From positions 67,580,001 through 67,644,000 of the forward strand of contig NC_135804.1 in assembly GCF_964213995.1 (NCBI RefSeq): a stretch of DNA of 64,000 bases, written 5' to 3'. The DNA comes from Mustelus asterias. Taxonomy: Eukaryota. Positions 22,633 through 56,097 of this stretch are shown in pieces. The notes beneath the pieces were generated by a model that was not told the origin of the DNA, ran no database searches, and worked only from the letters and a program-made list of their open reading frames with translations. Both the position numbers and the translations under genes were made by a program. Within the stretch, counting starts at the first letter, position 1. The number at the start of each line of letters is the position of its first letter.

Positions 22633-22726
22633 GTGTGTGGAGATGCCGGTGTTGGACTGGGGTAAACACAGTCAGACGTTTAACAACACCAGGTTAAAGT
22701 CCAACAGGTTTATTTGGTAGCAAAAG

Positions 22727-22772
22727 CCACACAGGCTTTCGGAGCTCTAAGCCCCTTCTTCAGGTGAGTGGG
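22727..22772 (-). ncRNA. Hammerhead motif in array pLTR 1 (core U16.1->C, probably inactive)
   Basis: GAAAGCCTG instead of GAAAGCTTG. Confidence 0.55.
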
Positions 22773-22975
22773 AATCCTGTTCACAAACAGAGCATATAAA
22801 GACACAAACACAATTTACATGAATAATGGTTGGAATGCGAATACTTACAACTAATCAAGTCTTTAAGAAACAAAATAATGTGAGTGGAGAGAGCATCAAG
22901 ACAGGGTAAAAAGATGTGTATTGTCTCCAGAAAAGACAGCCAGTGAAACTCTGCAGGTCCAGTCAACTGTGGGAG

Positions 22976-25643
22976 TTACAAATAGTGTGACATGAACCCA
23001 ATATCCCGGTTGAGGCTGTCCTCGTGTGTGCGGAACTTGGCTATCAGTTTCTGCTCAGCGACTCTGCGTTGTCGTGTGTCGCGAAGGCCGCCTTGGAGAA
23101 CGCTTACCCAAATATCAGAGGCCGAATGCCCGTGACCACTGAAGTGCTCCCCAACAGGAAGAGAACAGTCTTGCCTGGTGATTGTCGAGCGGTGTTCATT
23201 CATCTGTTGTCGCAGCATCTGCATAGTTTCCCCAATGTACCATGCCTCGGGACATCCTTTCTTGCAGCGTATCAGGTAGACAACGTTGGCCAAATTGCAA
23301 GAGTATGTACCGTGTACCTGGTGGATGGTGTTCTCACGTGAGATGATGGCATCTGTGTCAATGATCCGGCACGTCTTGCAGAGGTTGCTGTGGCAGGGTT
23401 GTGTGGTGTCATGGTCACTGTTCTCCTGAAGGCTGGGTAGTTTGCTGCGGACAATGGTCTGTTTGAGGTTGTGCGGTTGTTTGAAGGCAAGAAGTGGGGG
23501 TGTGGGGATGGCCTTGGCGAGATGTTCGTCTTCATCAATGACATATTGAAGGCTCCGGAGGAGATGCCGTAGGTTCTCCGCTCCGGCGAAGTACTGGACA
23601 ACGAAGGGTACTCTGTCCACTGTGTTCCGTGTTTGTCTTCTGAGGAGGTCGGTGCAGTTTTTCGCTGTGGCGCGTTGGAACTGTTGATCAATGAGTCGAG
23701 CGCCATATCCTGTACTTATGAGGGCATCTTTCAGCGTCTGGAGGTGTTTCTTGCGATCCTCCTCATCCGAGCAGATCCTGTGTATACGGAGGGCTTGTCC
23801 GTAGGGGATGGCTTCTTTAACGTGTTTAGGGTGGAAGCTGGAGAAGTGGAGCATCGTGAGGTTATCTGTGGGCTTGCGGTACAGTGAGGTGCTGAGGTGA
23901 CCGTCCTTAATGGAGATGCGTGTGTCCAAGAATGCAACCGATTCCGGAGAGTAGTCTATGGTGAGTCTGATGGTGGGATGGAACTTGTTGATGTCATCAT
24001 AGAGTTGTTTCAGTGATTGTCCAAAGGAAGAAAATGTCATCGATGTATCTAGTGTATATCATCGGTTGAAGGTCCCGTGCGGTGAAGAAGTCTTGTTTGA
24101 ACCTGTGCATGAAGATGTTGGCATATTAAGGTGCGAATTTGTTCCCCATGGCTGTTCCGTGTGTCTGGATGAAGAACTGGTTGTTGAAGGTGAAGATATT
24201 GTGGTCCAGGATGAAGCGGAGGAGATGTAAAATTGCATCTGGAAACTGGCAGTTGTTGGCGCTGAGCACTGAGGCCGTTGCAGCAATGCCATCGTCATGG
24301 GGGATGCTGGTGTAGAGTGCCGAGACATCCATTGTGACGAGGAGAGCTCCTGGTTCAACTGCTCCATGTGTGCTGAGTTTCTGTAGGAAGTCCGTCGTGT
24401 CGCAACAAAAGCTGGGGGTTCTTTGTACAATGGGTTTCAGTATGCCCTCGACATAGCCGGAGAGGTTCTCGCACAGGGTCCCATTGCCCGATACGATGGG
24501 ACGGCCGGGTGTGTTTGCCTTGTGTATCTTCGGGAGGCAGTAGAGATCTCCAACGCGGGGAGTACGTGGGATGAGAGCATGGAGGGTGTTCTGAAAGTTC
24601 GGATCAAAGGTCATGATCAGAGTGTTGAGTTGACGGGTGTGTTCTTTGGTCGGATCTGCAGGTAACTGTCTGTAGTGTTCCTTGTTGTTGAGTTGTTGGT
24701 ACACTTCGTTGCAGTAATCCGTTCTGTTCAGTATGACGATGGCCCCTCCTTTGTCTGCTGGTTTGATGGCAATGTTGCGGTTGGTCTTGAGAGCGTGGAT
24801 GGCGTTACGTTGTGCTTGGGTGATGTTCGGGGCTGTCTTGTGAGTGCGGCTGATGAATTTGGTGTTGACGCACCTCCTGACGGCTTGGGCATACATGTCA
24901 AGTCGAGGGCAGCGGCCTTCCGGAGGAGTCCAATTCGACTCTTTCCTCTTCGGATGCACTGCGGATCTCTCTGTTGGCTATTCCGGTTCATTGGCTGTCT
25001 CATTGTGTTCGTTGTTGGCCTCTTGGGGTTTGTGGAAGAACTCCCTCAGCTTCATTCGCCTGATGAATTCCTCTGTGTCTGCTGCGAGACTGATGGGGTC
25101 TATTTTGGTGGTGGGGCAAAAATTAAGCCCTCGGCTGAGAACTTCGATTTCATCTGGTTGAAGTGTGTAGTCGGACAAGTTGACAATGGACTTCCCTGCA
25201 GTGGTACTGTTTTCTACTGTGGTACGGGGGGAGGCTTGGTTGCTGCTGGTGGAGATGCCGAGTTTCTCAAGTTTCCTGTTCTTGGCGTGCATGTAGATGG
25301 TGTAGCTCCTTTGTCTCGTCTGCTTGGCAGAGTTTCGCAGCTGGTCTGCATACTGAGCGCACGTTGAGAATGTGGACTCTATCTTGGTTTCCAGGCTGCG
25401 GCGTTTGCTGTAGAGTTGGTGTATGAGGTGGTTGAGGAGGGTGAGAGAGGTGCGACGGCAAAGTCTCTCAGCGTAGTCTGTGTTATAGGTTGACCTGAGT
25501 GGGTTCGTGATCCGTAGTCCTTTCGGTATCTTGTCTGCTTTCTTGCATCTTTGTAGAAACTTGATGTCTGTGTCGATATGCGCGATCTTCTTGGAGATCC
25601 TCTCCACTTGGAGCCGGCAGTTTGCGGTGTCGATGGTAGTCAT
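22976..25643 (-). pseudogene. PLE ORF, unit 1 (premature stops at 24978 and 24126, small deletion near 24020)
   Basis: ORFs 24978-25679, 24126-24959 and 22976-24040 together give the N-terminal domain, RT and GIY-YIG; ATG (MTTIDTANC) at 25643. Confidence 0.9.
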
Positions 25644-25736
25644 GAGGTGGAGATGCCGGTGTTGGACTGGGGTAAACACAGTAAGAAGTTTAACAACACC
25701 AGGTTAAAGTCCAACAGGTTTATTTGGTAGCAAAAG

Positions 25737-25782
25737 CCACACAAGCTTTCGGAGCTCTAAGCCCCTTCTTCAGGTGAGTGGG
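25737..25782 (-). ncRNA. Minimal hammerhead ribozyme in array pLTR 2
   Basis: CAC CTGAAGA A GGGGCT TAG AGCTCC GAAA GCTT GTG. Confidence 0.75.
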
Positions 25783-25985
25783 AATTCTGTTCACAAACAG
25801 AGCATATAAAGACACAAACTCAATTTACATGAATAATGGTTGGAATGCGAATACTTACAACTAATCAAGTCTTTAAGAAACAAAATAATGTGAGTGGAGA
25901 GAGCATCAAGACAGGGTAAAAAGATGTGTATTGTCTCCAGAAAAGACAGCCAGTGAAACTCTGCAGGTCCAGTCAACTGTGGGAG

Positions 25986-28658
25986 TTACAAACAGTGTGA
26001 CATGAACCCAATATCCCGGTTGAGGCCGTCCTCGTGTGTGCGGAACTTGGCTATAGGTTTCTGCTCAGCGACTCTGCGCCGTCGTGTGTCGCGAAGGCTG
26101 CCTTGGAGAACGCTTACCCGAATATCAGAGGCCGAATGCCCGTGACCGCTGAAGTGCTCCCCAACAGGAAGAGAACAGTCTTGCCTGGTGATTGTCGAGC
26201 GGTGTTCATTCATCCGTTGTCGCAGCGTCTGCATAGTTACCCCAATGTACCATGCCTCGGGACATCCTTTCTTGCAGCGTATCAGGTAGACAACGTTGGC
26301 CGAATTGCAAGAGTATGTACCGTGTACCTGGTGGATGGTGTTCTCACGTGAGATGATGGCATCCGTGTCGATGATCCGGCACGTCTTGCAGAGGTTGCTG
26401 TGGCAGGGTTGTGTGGTGTCATGGTCACTGTTCTCCTGAAGGCTGTGTAGTTTGCTGCGGACAATGGTCTGTTTGAGGTTGTGCGGTTGTTTGAAGGCAA
26501 GAAGTGGGGGTGTGGGGATGGCCTTGGCGAGATGTTCGTCTTCATCAATGACATATTGAAGGCTCCGGAGGAGATGCCATAGGTTCTCCGCTCCGGGGAA
26601 GTACTGGACAACGAAGGGTACTCTGTCCACTGTGTTCCGTGTTTGTCTTCTGAGGAGGTCGGTGCAGTTTTTCGCTGTGGCGCGTTGGAACTGTTGATCA
26701 ATGAGTCGAGCGCCATATCCTGTACTTATGAGGGCATCTTTCAGCGTCTGGAGGTGTTTCTTGCGATCCTCCTCATCCGAGCAGATCCTGTGTATACGGA
26801 GGGCTTGTCCGTAGGGGATGGCTTCTTTAACGTGTTTAGGGTGGAAGCTGGAGAAGTGGAGCATCGTGAGGTTATCCGTGGGCTTGCGGTACAGTGAGGT
26901 GCTGAGGTGACCGTCCTTAATGGAGATGCGTGTGTCCAAGAATGCAACCGATTCCGGAGAGTAGTCTATGGTGAGTCTGATGGTGGGATGGAACTTGTTG
27001 ATGTCATCATAGAGTTGTTTCAGTGATTGTTCACCATGAGTCCAAAACAAGAAAATGTCATCGATGTATCTAGTGTATAGCATCGGTTGAAGGTCCCGTG
27101 TGGTGAAGAAGTCTTGTTTGAACCTGTGCATGAAGATGTTGGCATATTGAGGTGCGAATTTGGTCCCCATGGCTGTTCCGTGTGTCTGGATGAAGAACTG
27201 GTTGTTGAAGGTGAAGATATTGTGGTCCAGGATGAAGCGGAGGAGATGTAAAATTGCATCTGGAAACTGGCAGTTGTTGGCGCTGAGCACTGAGGCCGTT
27301 GCAGCAATGCCATCGTCATGGGGGATGCTGGTGTAGAGTGCCGAGACATCCATTGTGACGAGGAGAGCTCCTGGTTCAACTGCTCCATGTGTGCTGAGTT
27401 TCTGTAGGAAGTCTGTCGTGTCGCAACAAAAGCTGGGGGTTCTTTGTACAATGAGTTTCAGTATGCCCTCGACATAGCCGGAGAGGTTCTCGCACAGGGT
27501 CCCATTGCCTGATACGATGGGACGGCCGGGTGTGTTTGCCTTGTGTATCTTCGGGAGGCAGTAGAGATCTCCAACGCGGGGAGTACGTGGGATGAGAGCA
27601 CGGAGGGTGTTCTGAAGGTCCGGATCAAAGGTCTTGATCAGAGTGTTGAGTTGACGGGTGTGTTCTTTGATCGAATCTGCAGGTAACTGTCTGTAGTGTT
27701 CCTCGTTGTTGAGTTGTCGGTACACTTCTTTGCAGTAATCCGTTCTGTTCAGTATGACGATGGCCCCTCCTTTGTCTGCTGGTTTGATGGCAATGTTGCG
27801 GTTGGTCTTGAGAGCGTGGATGGCGTTACGTTGTGCTTGGGTGATGTTCGGGGCTGTCTTGTGAGTGCGGCTGATGAATTTGGTGTTGACGCACCTCCTG
27901 ATGGCTTGGGCATAAATGTCAAGTCGAGGGCAGCGGCCTTCCGGAGGAGTCCAATTCGACTCTTTCCTCTTCGGATGCACTGCGGATCTCTCTGTTGGCT
28001 ATTCCGGTTCATTGGCTGTCTCATTGTGTTCGTTGTTGGCCTCTTGGGGTTTGTGGAAGAACTCCCTCAGCTTCATTCGCCTGATGAATTCCTCTGTGTC
28101 TGCTGCGAGACTGATGGGGTCTATTTTGGTGGTGGGGCAAAAATTAAGCCCTTGGCTGAGAACTTCGATTTCATCTGGTTGAAGTGTGTAGTCGGACAAG
28201 TTGACAATGGACTTCCCTGCAGTGGTACTGTTTTCTATTGTGGTACGGGGGGAGGCTTGGTTGCTGCTGGTGGAGATGCCGAGTTTCTCAAGTTTCCTGT
28301 TCTTGGTGTGCATGTAGATGGTGTAGCTCCTTTGTCTCGTCTGCTTGGCAGAGTTTCGCAGCTGGTCTGCAGCCTGAGCGCAAGTTGAGAATATGGACTC
28401 TATCTTGGTTTCCAGGCTGCGGCGTTTGCTGTAGAGTTGGTGTATGAGGTGGTTGAGGAGGGTGAGAGACGTGCAAAGTCTCTCAGCGTAGTCTGTGTTA
28501 TAGGTTGACCTGAGTGGGTTTGTGATCCGTAGTCCTTTCGGTATCTTGTCTGCTTTCTTGCATCTTTGTAGAAAGTTGATGTCTGTGTCGATATCCGCGA
28601 TCTTCTTGGAGATCCTCTCCACTTGGAGCCGGCAGTTTGCGGTGTCGATGGTAGTCAT
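25986..28658 (-). pseudogene. PLE ORF, unit 2 (full length apart from one in-frame TAG at 27999-28001)
   Basis: ORFs 27999-28694 and 25986-27980 are in the same frame, separated by the TAG and 6 codons; RT YIDD and GIY-YIG are intact. Confidence 0.9.
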
Positions 28659-28751
28659 GATGTGGAGATGCCGGTGTTGGACTGGGGTAAACACAGTAAG
28701 AAGTTTAACAACACCAGGTTAAAGTCCAACAGGTTTATTTGGTAGCAAAAG

Positions 28752-28797
28752 CCACACAAGCTTTCGGAGCTCTAAGCCCCTTCTTCAGGTGAGTGGG
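28752..28797 (-). ncRNA. Minimal hammerhead ribozyme in array pLTR 3
   Basis: Identical to 25737-25782. Confidence 0.75.
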
Positions 28798-29071
28798 AAT
28801 TCTGTTCACAAACAGAGCATATAAAGACACAAACTCAATTTACATGAATAATGGTTGGAATGCGAATACTTACAACTAATCAAATCTTTAAGAAACAAAA
28901 TAATGTGAGTGGAGAGAGCATCAAGACAGGGTAAAAAGATGTGTATTGTCTCCAGAAAAGACAGCCAGTGAAACTCTGTAGGTCCAGTCAACTGTGGGGG
29001 TTACAAATAGTGTGACATGAACCCAATATCCCGGTTGAGGCCGTCCTCGTGTGTGCGGAACTTGTCGAGCG

Positions 29072-29639: not shown

Positions 29640-30801
29640 CCCATCCTCTTAATTAAACCCTACTGCAATCAATATCACTTCTCTGATCTCTGACATTTTG
29701 AGGGCCTGGCAGGGCAGAGCGTACAGAATTGCTTAAGCACATGACTATCAGCTTTACTTCTTCCCTTTCATCTAACCTGTGTATTATCTTTTGCTGTCTA
29801 ACCTCCTCAAAGAAACTGTGTGGGTCAGCCGGTGGCTCAAAAGTTGGGATTTTATTTGCAATTTCGGCCAATTGTGCCACCGTAAACGGGGTCGTGTATG
29901 TAACAGCTGGGCCCTGAGCCTCTCTTACCCGTCACTGGGTGCATTGGTACCGGAAGTGAATCTGGGGGCACGGTGGGTATGACTTCCCCTGGGAAAGATG
30001 GTGGTAGACCCCAATCCTCGGTTCGCGTAACGTACAGCTTAGCATTTTTTTTTAACTCTCCCCAATCTGCATTCTCTCTCTCCTCTTCCTCTACTGTCCT
30101 GAAGGTACACAAATCCATTTTGAACTGATAATCGGGATTTCAGCCGTGAAATTTCTTGCTGGCATTTGGAGTGGTCAGTGGTTGCCTGTCTCTGTTCTTT
30201 ACTTGGCTTGATGTAACGCTTTTATTGCCACCTGCAGATCAGTGCACTTAGCTTCCAATCGTGCTACTGCCTGCTCGACTTCACCTTCGGCCAAGACAGC
30301 GTGCTGGGCATCTTGGTAGGCTCTCTCATACTGGGTCTGAAAATTGCCCAGATGTAATAAATTTGCCTGGTTTGTTCTTCTTAATTCGTTTACCTCTGTC
30401 TTTTTCTGCTTTTATTTGTTCTATCCTCTCCTGCTGCTGTTCCTTTAGTTTCTTAATCTCCGCATACTTTTCCTCTCTTAATTTCCTGAATCCCTCTTTC
30501 TCCTCTTGTACCTGCTTCGATTCCTCCAGTTCCTTATGAACTGTGTTTAGTTCCTTTTCTGTTCCCAGCAGCTGTCCTAAGCAGCTCACCATGGCAGTCG
30601 CTTTCTCACATTTGCCCATTTTCCCTGAACTTTCCTCAGTTCGTCCCAATACTTCTGCCCTAGGGATCCTGGTCCCGTCTCAGTATTGGCACAAACTTCT
30701 GCCCATAGGGGCCACCCTTTCTTCTTAATATATTGCCTGATTTTTGTTTCCCACAGGGGACACTTCTCTGTCTCTGTGCTGTTTCCTGTATTCAATGACA
30801 A
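29640..30801 (-). pseudogene. Frameshifted retrovirus-like gag remnant (MA-like N-terminus, coiled coil, capsid N-terminal region)
   Basis: Lies directly downstream of LTR B. Fragments CPLWETKIRQYIKKKGWPLW, an E/K/Q-rich coiled coil, and PMHPVT..VTYTTPFTVAQLAEIA..FFEEV, which resembles the retroviral CA YxPF..L motif. Confidence 0.55.
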
Positions 30802-30901
30802 GGGATAGGGAGTTGATTGGGCTGCGGGTAAGGCTTTGGGCTATGTTCCGGTCCTAATCCCTCCAGATCCCAATGTAAATCTACAGAGTTTATCCTAAGT
30901 C

Positions 30902-53017: not shown

Positions 53018-53136
53018 TTACCAATAAAGAAAGACGGATTTGAAATGATCCACGATGAAGATAGTCCCCAACAGGATCACCATTAACCCCAACAGGAAAC
53101 GGCACATGTTAATCATTTGGAAGTGGTCAGTTGAGC
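53018..53136 (-). pseudogene. Putative terminal transmembrane (TM) exon of an activating Ig-like receptor (NxxR motif, short tail)
   Basis: Long polypyrimidine tract plus CCAG acceptor; phase-1 reading STDHFQMINMCRFLLGLMVILLGTIFIVDHFKSVFLYW*. Confidence 0.6.
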
Positions 53137-53912
53137 CTGGTGGACAGCAACAGAAGGGATGGTGAAAGAAATTCAATGAGAAAAAGGAGAGAAACAAATA
53201 AAGACAGAATGTGGCATAGTGTATATTTGAGAGAGGGAGTGGAAGTTATAAGCAGATGGAATAGAGTGTGAGAGAGAGCAACAGAGCGTGACGATTGTGT
53301 TAGAATCAGGACTGTCTCTTTAAGAGAAACAGTTAACGTTGGAGTCCATATGGCCCGCCACAGATGCTGTCAGGTCTGCTGAGTTTTTCCAGCATTTTCT
53401 GTTTTTATTTCAGATCTCCAGAATCCACAGTTTTTGCTTTATTTTTGTCTGGGATCTAATCTCATAGTGGTTCATGTAAATGTTAAGCTTCCGAGAGTCT
53501 TGCAGAGTGACCATAGGGAAGAGAGATCTGGCAGTCACTGGCTGCTTGGCAGAAGTTGTGGGACAGAAGGGAGGACAACGAGATTGAGGAAAGGAGGAGT
53601 GAGGATACAAAGGAGCTAAATGGATAAATGATAATTTCTGAATTCAAGACGTGAAGGTGGATTGCTGGAATTTGGAAAGGAGCGGGGAGGTGAATAGGTG
53701 AGTGAAAAAATGGGCAGATGCTGTCACTAGAGATATACAGGTGAGGAGGCAATCCTCACTGCTTTCCCCAGATTGGAGAGGAGGAGGAAGATGAGATCAA
53801 CATTCTCTGTGCCAAGGTTTTTTCTGGGATCTGAGCCTACTTTTATCCTTTTACTGTTTAATTTGTTAATGCATCATATCCAAATTGTTGTTTTTTAAAT
53901 AAACTTAACAAA

Positions 53913-54688
53913 CCATTTTTTGGAAGGACTAATACAAATGGGAAATATACAGTAAATGGCAGAACCCTTAAGAGTATTGATAGGCGGAGGGATCTGGGTG
54001 TACAGGTACACAGGTCACTGAAAGTGGCAGCGCAGGTAGAGAAGGTAGTCAAGAAGGCATAAGGCATGCTTGCCTTCATCGGCCCGGACATTGAGTTTAA
54101 AAATTGGCAAGTCATGTTGCAGCTTTATGGAACCTTAGTGAGGCCGCACTTGGAATATAGCGTTCAATTCTGGTCGTTGCCAGAAAGATGTGGTGGCTTT
54201 GGAGAGGGTACAGAAAAGATTTACAAGGATGTTGCCTGGCATGGAGGGCATTAGCTATGAGGAGAGGTTGGGCAAACTTGGTTTGTTCTCACTGGAACGA
54301 CGGAGGTTGAGGGGAGACCTGATAGAAGTCTACAAGATTATGAGAGGCATGGACAGAGTGGATAGTCAGAAGCTTTTTCCTAGGGTGGAAGAGTTAATTA
54401 CTAGGGCGCATAGGTTTAAGGTGCGAGGGGCAAGGTTTGAAGCAGATGTACAAGCCAGGGTTTTTACACAGAGGGTGGTGGATGCCTGGAACTCGCTGCC
54501 GGGGGAGGTAGTGGAACCAGATACGATAGTGATTTTTAAGGGCATCTTGACAAATACATGAATAGGATGGGAATAGAGGTATATGGTCCCCGGAAGGGTG
54601 GGGTTTTTTAGTTAAGTCGGGTAGCATTGTCGGTACAGGCTTGGAGGGCCGAAGAGCCTGTTCTTGTGCTGTATTGTTCTTTGTTCTA
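53913..54688 (+). mobile_element. CR1 3' fragment
   Basis: ORFs 54066-54254 and 54190-54561; TTGTTCT tail. Confidence 0.9.
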
Positions 54689-54952
54689 ATGATCCGCTAA
54701 ACCCGGTATATATCGAGTGATTCGGATGCAAACCAGCCGACACTGGCTGTCGTTCTTCGACAGGGATCCAAGCGGATCTTCATGGTGGAAAGGCAGAGGA
54801 GTTCATGGGCACTGAATCTAACATTCATTGCAGTGCAAAGTGGGAAGTAGCGGATTGAACGCCTATTATTTTAAAACTAAGGATCAGTGGTGAATACGAT
54901 AACCTGTATATGAAAAATATGCAATTTAGCACTGAAAATCCGATACACTTTC

Positions 54953-55226
54953 TTTGACCCCGAACCGTGTAGCTGTCATTGGCGGCGACATCAAGAGAGG
55001 CATGATATATCTGACAGGTATACCCGTTTTCCAGAGGGCTGAGGGAGCTTGAAGCCTGACATAATCCCTCCTCATTCCATATTACTGTGATACACATCCC
55101 AGGTGGAATTTTGAAGTCATTCTTATACCAGGTGATGTTAACTTCCTCTGGAAAGAAGCCAGCTTTTGCACAGAAGAGTGTGTGTTGAAGGGGATGGGCG
55201 GATAATCTTCACAGGTGTTGGCGGCA
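54953..55226 (-). pseudogene. Ig C1-set domain exon with a 2-nt frameshift and a mutated donor
   Basis: Acceptor TTTCCAG; VPPTPVKII..TLLCK/AGFFPEEVNITWYKND..GLCQASSSL..YTCQIYHASL. Length 274 nt (276 expected for a phase 1-1 exon); donor GAAAGT instead of GTAAGT. Confidence 0.8.
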
Positions 55227-56051
55227 CTGGAAATGGAGAGAAAGCCAATGCTGATTTCGCTAATTGTGCCTTGCGTTTGAGATGGGAAAGAACAGGCGGC
55301 CGAAAGGCTGCTGCGCTTTATCAACTTTCGAAGAATTTTATCACAATATTAATATTCATATTGAACCCCTGGGTGCCTTACAATAATAAATTCCGACATT
55401 TCTATCGTTCTTTTCTTCATGGAAAGCCATTGACTTTAAATCCCTCCAACTGTGATAAACTAAAATTCTATGTACATAGATCCCAGATAGACGGTAGGGT
55501 CTTTTTAATCCATCGTTTTCTGTGTCTCCAAGTGTTCACTTTGAATTAGCTCGCGTTTCGTAATCACTTTCATGTCGCTTGACAGTGAGACAATAACATT
55601 TCGTAAAATGAGCGATCATTTAATATCACAGTCCATGGATTTTTCCGATAGAGTTTAACACCGTTCACCAACTTGACAGGCGAGAACGAATCAACCGCCT
55701 GATATATAGTTTTCAGCGTTTCTCAAGAAATAAATATCGGGCGAGATGTAAACCCCACTGTCAATTGTCAAAATCAAATCCAACTAAATGTTTCTGCTCC
55801 AGTCTGAGAGTTGTTGTCAAGGTCAAATCAGAATGAAGCTAACAGCACTGTTGGTGAACCTACACTGCAGCGGCAGAAGAACACGGCTCACCACCACCTT
55901 CTCAAGGACTCGGAGAGACAAACCCCACATCTGGTGATCGAATGATAAATAACAAGTTACCCTGTGCTGGAGTTCATCCACTTGGCTTTTTTCCCGAGAT
56001 AATGATCACACTCTAAAACTCAACATCCACGTATATTATTCAAACACTTAC

Positions 56052-56097
56052 CTTGTATTCGGGTACAGAGTGTAATCAAATGGAGGGACAAAATCAT
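56052..56097 (-). pseudogene. Putative signal-peptide (leader) exon
   Basis: ATG..MILSLHLITLCTRIQ + G followed by GTAAGTG donor (phase 1, typical of Ig-superfamily leaders). Confidence 0.5.

Follow-up and report, generated by a model that had tools for sequence, protein, structure and literature searches.

A probable pseudogene with an NxxR transmembrane exon in a candidate V-C1 paired-receptor family of Mustelus asterias

Large families of paired activating and inhibitory receptors (KIR/LILR, SIRP, CHIR, NITR) set innate thresholds in bony vertebrates. In SIRP, which in mammals is linked to NSFL1C, a Lys in the middle of the transmembrane segment (TM) serves DAP12. According to the accessible portions of PMC6557307, PMC2413239 and PMC4536121, a second type of TM, with Asn-x-x-Arg (NxxR) and a C-terminal acid, associates with FcR-gamma, the Arg being essential; its hosts there are LRC, FCRL-like and SLAM-like receptors of mammals, birds and Xenopus. 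For Xenopus the association has transfection support (PMC6557307, PMC2413239, in the same portions). Sharks or cartilaginous fish do not occur in the accessible portions of these three papers. The SIRP family is listed under Tetrapoda in the accessible part of PMC13262535, and those of PMC10751288, PMC12227049, PMC7916673 and PMC3964593 hold no account of a shark V-C1 paired-receptor family. No description of such a family or of a shark NxxR TM was found in the literature, subscription papers being mostly outside the search.

A stretch of 64,000 nucleotides of Mustelus asterias DNA (the window), located on contig C4 of the 3.68-Gb genome, was analysed. A first-pass annotation made from the sequence alone had placed a leader at 56097-56052, a C1-set Ig exon at 55226-54953 and a TM exon at 53136-53018, all on the minus strand. 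The three elements are present, and are given below with the intervening features.

56052..56097, minus strand: leader-like ATG-to-donor element, its membership in the gene doubtful
55227..56051, minus strand: interval expected to hold the V exon, with a non-significant V-like hexapeptide and a high-copy repeat
54953..55226, minus strand: C1-set Ig exon with a frameshift near 55185 and GA in place of the GT splice donor
53918..54688, strand not assigned: interspersed repeat fragment between C1 and TM exons, LINE-like by eye
53022..53136, minus strand: Arg-type TM exon, phase-1 acceptor intact, 72% identical to the TM of model P0015
53110-53108, 53101-53099 and 53050-53048, minus strand: codons of the TM-exon Asn, Arg and Asp (Arg+17)
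53021 onwards, minus strand: probable GTAAG donor at the 3' end of the TM exon; the unspliced reading stops at 53020-53018

The C1 exon matched Pfam C1-set over the cut-off (25 bits against 21, E 2.5e-5). The frameshift and dead donor described earlier both proved real: the exon measures 274 nt (3n+1), its alignment to the C4:67,644 kb paralogue has two gaps, one of 2 nt near 55185 and one of 6 nt, and GA stands where that paralogue has a GT donor. The lesions were the same, wherever covered, in public contigs of three runs (two sample labels, one study, possibly the source of the assembly itself), with contigs X1 and X2 covering the whole exon and X3 the frameshift only. Because the public contigs show no difference, an assembly error is unlikely to lie behind the lesions. 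The paralogue itself (L002, C4:67,644,160-67,644,425), just past the end of the window, is a second degenerate C1 exon, sister to that of the window (95/80), without the B-strand Cys and the C-strand Trp; V is absent upstream of it and TM is absent between it and the window C1. These two adjacent broken C1 exons are a possible tandem pair, without V.

Searches with tblastn, a protein profile and a DNA profile found no V exon between the intact upstream gene and the window C1, in agreement with the earlier failure to see one between leader and C1. A V-like hexapeptide near 55403-55380, brought up by tblastn, scored 1.4 bits, a level reached by 21 of 586 control windows, with an nhmmer E of 6; lying within the background of the control windows, it was rejected as a V remnant. 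Repeat depth marked a short high-copy repeat near 55840-55910. Because the architecture of the family is leader-V-C1-TM, the missing V is read as loss and not as design. That loss far exceeds the decay of the C1 exon, which keeps 52-60% identity to its relatives, so simple neutral decay would have to be joined by a deletion, or by a V-less phase earlier on.

The element read earlier as a leader has the pattern of one but is unlike the leaders of the family. A scan for ATG, a hydrophobic stretch and G/GTRAG returned it as the single instance in 528 kb on both strands, with thresholds set post hoc on the element itself. A profile built from 49 N-termini of the family gave it 2.7 bits, the level of its own shuffles (380 of 500 as high), where a true leader scored 15.3. 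Family leaders, where they could be picked out, lie ~160-370 nt upstream of the V exon. A DNA match of the leader region to L110 and L112 (E 0.16), considered as a sign of a V-less subfamily, was rejected as chance; both of these genes have broken V exons.

In the TM exon N-M-C-R stands where the TM starts, and the tail is short. When 264 kb were scanned under strict criteria for an acceptor plus a hydrophobic stretch, four matches came up on the two strands together, and the window TM was among only two on the minus strand. In paralogue TM exons two bases separate a stop codon from the GTAAG donor after it; the window exon keeps the donor at 53021 and has TAT at the family stop position, and to judge from these letters it probably ends at 53022, at that donor. 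The start at 53136, the NxxR and the short tail reported earlier stand; the former end at 53018 came from a stop that overlaps the donor. A DNA search with the exon returned itself alone, and a protein search gave two paralogues at E 0.7. Irrelevant matches were all that PDB searches with the window TM or with a profile of shark TMs produced, no solved chain being matched. The repeat in the C1-TM intron recurs many times over 264 kb, its copies being 66-86% identical.

At least 57 related C1 exons lie in two C4 clusters, at 58.79-59.96 Mb and 67.63-70.02 Mb; the C1 query, with 150 of 450 candidates scored, gave 69 matches, 58 of them (57 exons) in the clusters, a lower bound. Most clustered C1 exons have a V exon upstream, and 53 of 58 matches to the V query fall in the same clusters. 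When the 10 kb that follow each of these 57 exons were scored, 39 had an uncharged TM, 13 an Arg TM and 5 no TM within that distance. Broken or weak exons made up 2 of the 39 uncharged TMs, and three of the 13 Arg-TM genes (the window gene, L081 and L094) are visibly broken. The 13 Arg-TM exons have a short tail, with Asp (nine) or Asn (four) at Arg+17. The nearest intact neighbour, 21-35 kb upstream of the window C1, comprises leader, V, C1, an uncharged TM and a tail in three exons, of which the final one encodes two ITIM-consensus motifs; it is the one uncharged-TM member whose genomic tail was read, and ITIM-like motifs occur in many NCBI models of that class. At C4:67,691,300-67,691,900 (plus strand) there is an inverted, broken copy of a leader and V, 71% identical to the V of this neighbour, which was perhaps moved away from one of the C1 exons that lack V.

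The second cluster ends, on its low side, with the window gene, and no exonic neighbour downstream of it in the window was recognised by eye among the ORFs. A tandem block with a period of ~3.0 kb occupies 22,636-29,064 and 29,650-30,840 of the window; the broken minus-strand ORFs next to it have, by eye, the look of retroelements and gave no Pfam match over the cut-off. Within the second cluster, C4:67.79-68.70 Mb and 69.29-70.0 Mb appear to be a large segmental duplication, across which the gene pairs L078/L090, L081/L094, L080/L092 and L082/L095 recur in order. An isolated, divergent V-C1-TM member of the family (L099, L100) was seen at C4:54,656,039-54,664,000, ~4 Mb from the first cluster.

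Protein searches found V-C1 proteins in sharks, rays and chimaera. NxxR together with the same C1 type occurs in NCBI models of three other shark genera, from two further orders. The Heptranchias models P0015, P0017 and P0028 have leader, V, C1 and a TM with N-F-C-R, 72% identical to that of the window; Chiloscyllium P0042 is a V-C1 model with N-I-F-R; Hemiscyllium P0102, also with N-I-F-R, is a C1-only (V-less) model with an altered TM end and may be partial. The earlier inference of a cartilaginous-fish family joining this C1 type to an NxxR TM is thus borne out in predicted models, with the amendment that the ectodomain is V-C1 and not C1 alone. Exon joining in intact relatives and homologs of the TM exon were both found, the joining as predicted in XP_ models. 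A search of sequencing runs with an intact Arg-TM paralogue listed no RNA run, which weighs neither way. AlphaFold2 gave for P0015 a V domain, a C1 domain and a TM helix at 225-252 (pLDDT 91).

The five NxxR TMs (window, P0015, P0028, P0042, P0102) form one clade (98/99). Their x positions vary while the Asn is constant over three shark orders, so the Asn is conserved in a single NxxR lineage. As a marker, NxxR holds for this orthologous lineage, where Asn, Arg, acid and short tail go together, and not for the Arg-TM class at large: the Asn is present in 1 of the 13 genomic exons, namely the window copy, and is absent from the other 12. It occurs in 4 of 14 NCBI Arg-class models. Since Gln replaces Arg in two of these models (Arg in 12) and the acid at +17 is lacking in three (present in 11), the class is not uniform. 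By comparison of these residues, the wider, putatively activating class conserves Arg and an acid or Asn at +17, not the NxxR Asn. Gln for Arg was seen in the Arg-class TMs of P0011, P0034, P0038 and P0071 (Chiloscyllium, Hemiscyllium and one Heptranchias model); such members are possibly non-signalling.

A functional gene would have leader, V, C1 reading frame and splice sites all intact; the window copy falls short of this and is unable to make the receptor protein. With a frameshifted C1, an undetectable V and an intact NxxR TM, the locus is probably a pseudogene, descended from a likely activating V-C1 paired receptor, and it may have died through birth-and-death turnover at the cluster edge. 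The TM exon might instead still serve as an alternative last coding exon, spliced to the C1 of the ITIM neighbour ~32 kb upstream with two C1 exons skipped, yielding an activating isoform. It has the same strand and phase as that neighbour, keeps its acceptor, frame, Asn, Arg and Asp, resembles Heptranchias more than the C1 exon does (72% against 52%), and is the only Arg TM of its C1 lineage found in the genome. At three C1 lesions per ~280 nt, however, a 115-nt exon would be spared by chance about 3 times in 10 (an estimate), TAT replaces the family stop codon and the neighbour's own terminal exon intervenes; such reuse is considered highly improbable. Hardly any credence is given to the view that the gene was once a V-less leader-C1-TM receptor which used the leader-like exon at 56097-56052 until its C1 broke. 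That element is indeed unique in 528 kb and on the right strand and in the right phase, V is untraceable beside a well-preserved C1, and both the sister C1 at C4:67,644 kb and the model P0102 lack V; but the element is unlike family leaders and was found with post hoc thresholds, V is present in P0015, P0028 and P0042, P0102 is perhaps a partial model, and the other seemingly V-less Arg genes have broken V exons.

Within species, Arg-TM genes and uncharged-TM partners share 88-98% identity of C1 in six pairs (95, 98 and 96% in M. asterias, 90 and 88% in Heptranchias, 96% in Hemiscyllium), and V identities in such pairs were 98 and 94%. Heptranchias P0015 and P0013 are 86% identical across 228 residues. 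Among NxxR orthologues of different species, C1 identity is 52-59%. A C1 tree of 36 chosen rows needed 12 changes for the Arg label, in agreement with an 85-row tree (9 changes), and AU tests on C1 rejected a single clade of NxxR genes as well as one of all Arg genes. The TM tree (51 rows) put 24 Arg-class TMs on one side of a branch (92/95), on 37 columns only and with class labels drawn from the same sequences. The simplest reading of these comparisons would be that an old activating TM exon was kept while ectodomains were exchanged with inhibitory partners. Gene conversion or repeated exon shuffling may hold the activating and inhibitory ectodomains alike.

A zeta-family profile gave two genome matches over the cut-off among the three matches listed. 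An FcR-gamma-like gene on C275, known from its TM exon, keeps the TM Asp and has FceRI gamma as best PDB match (E 3e-11); a CD3-zeta TM exon is also in the genome. A complex prediction for the window TM with two copies of the FcR-gamma TM (score 0.06, mark 0.34) speaks neither for nor against such a complex. From the reported NxxR/FcR-gamma pairing and the FcR-gamma-like exon on C275 we infer Arg-Asp pairing for the intact NxxR orthologues. An intact orthologue would be a type I membrane protein without a signalling motif of its own; in the membrane its Arg would pair with the Asp of an FcR-gamma dimer, whose ITAM would carry the signal, while the look-alike ITIM partner would inhibit through phosphatases. 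By analogy with land vertebrates, the Arg-bearing TM likely marks an activating receptor that signals via a partner chain.

The shark exon shares Asn-x-x-Arg with the TMs of LILRA, NCR1/NKp46, GPVI, FCAR, OSCAR, TARM1, ggFcR, Xenopus ILR, XFL-TM1 and SLAM-like receptors, as these are given in the accessible portions of PMC6557307, PMC2413239 and PMC4536121. Further shared features are an acidic C-terminal end of the TM (Arg+17 in shark numbering, a register not aligned to mammalian TMs), a short tail, an exon of its own and an expanded paired family. It differs in sitting on V-C1, where known NxxR TMs sit on LRC, FCRL or SLAM domains, and in that the Asn occurs in one shark lineage only. The DYT consensus at the N-terminus of the TM exon, described in the accessible part of PMC6557307, is unmatched (D-H-F in the window, D-R-F in Heptranchias, G-R-F in Chiloscyllium). 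LRC receptors have C2-like Ig domains, whereas in the shark family C1-set is the best Pfam match, preceded by V-set in intact members. With TTYH1 as the one marker of LRC linkage, none of 24 Tweety matches fell on C4. The suggested synteny with MHC- or LRC-related regions was not borne out, neither Tweety nor MHC class I, one marker each, having a match on C4.

The Arg-TM members could be real receptors coupled to CD3-zeta, to DAP10/12 or to no adaptor, with a convergent likeness to tetrapod NxxR TMs. For this speak the lack of Asn in most Arg-TM members and of Arg in those with Gln, the zeta TM exon in the genome, the absent DYT motif and a shark TM profile that matches no solved chain. Asn, Arg, C-terminal acid and short tail nevertheless occur together in five sequences of four genera, though the x positions vary, and shark TMs match three of the four features given in the accessible part of PMC6557307; we regard this alternative as unlikely. 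More ambitious, and put forward tentatively as a possibility we would not bet on, is the idea that the shark NxxR...acid exon is the ancient module of tetrapod LRC, FCRL and SLAM-like receptors. On that idea an FcR-gamma-coupling exon would predate the split of cartilaginous and bony vertebrates and would have been grafted in sharks onto a non-rearranging, antigen-receptor-like V-C1 paired system of 50-plus genes, likely the missing chondrichthyan NK/myeloid receptor complex. Either the NxxR TM type, reported from mammals, birds and amphibians in the accessible portions of those papers, would be pushed to the base of jawed vertebrates, or a precise convergence would be shown. New here are the 57-gene inventory, the NxxR lineage traced through three orders and the tests for exchange of ectodomains; the window copy itself is probably only a pseudogene. 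As candidates there are the activating/inhibitory pair of Heptranchias, whose ectodomains are 86% identical, and the shark FcR-gamma.

The family has been masked by a dozen misleading automatic names. Several members are auto-named SIRP-like by NCBI, and the C1 had been called SIRP-like before. The family, which would work in the manner of SIRP or LILR pairs, resembles SIRP-alpha/SIRP-beta1 in a V plus C1-set ectodomain, in near-identical ectodomains and in clustered paired members with ITIM tails and charged TMs. However, SIRP has V-C1-C1, where intact shark members have one V and one C1, and the shark Arg stands at the start of the TM instead of a mid-TM Lys. SEP-domain matches, the one marker of SIRP linkage, lay on C7 and C20 (none of four on C4). 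SIRP-like is thus a resemblance and no claim of orthology.

B7-H6 (NCR3LG1) and tapasin-related proteins, whose names NCBI frequently gives to shark members, have the V-C1 architecture in common with them. B7-H6 was among the weak PDB matches (24% identity only) and, in the fold search, among those sharing the top place (Z 14.8, rmsd 4.2, 190 aligned); there many Ig proteins lay no more than 1 Z unit apart, SIRP not being among those listed. B7-H6 is a single-copy ligand, and a 57-gene family (at least) with ITIM and Arg-TM classes is accordingly receptor-like. UrIg, UrIg2 and PRARP share an unsplit V, its G strand containing GxG, and a C1 after it, and UrIg2 was the second PDB match of the family profile (E 7e-26); compared with these non-rearranging VJ-C1 genes the shark family has a single C1 and paired ITIM/Arg-TM tails. 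Linkage to MHC, as in the UrIg type, was not found, all 140 MHC class I matches being on C8 and none on C4. These exon matches lie at C8:21.6-24.8 Mb, most of them in a dense array, and at 31-43 Mb.

Sequence and fold searches together tied UrIg2, B7 proteins, SIRP, MHC and Ig chains. Among those named, the nearest matches outside chondrichthyans were lungfish, coelacanth and frog models auto-named SIRP-like. In a lungfish model that bears the automatic name SIRP-beta-like, Arg stands at the start of the TM, and a coelacanth SIRP-like model has a TM Lys (P0115/P0144); both bear on the age of the charged-TM types.
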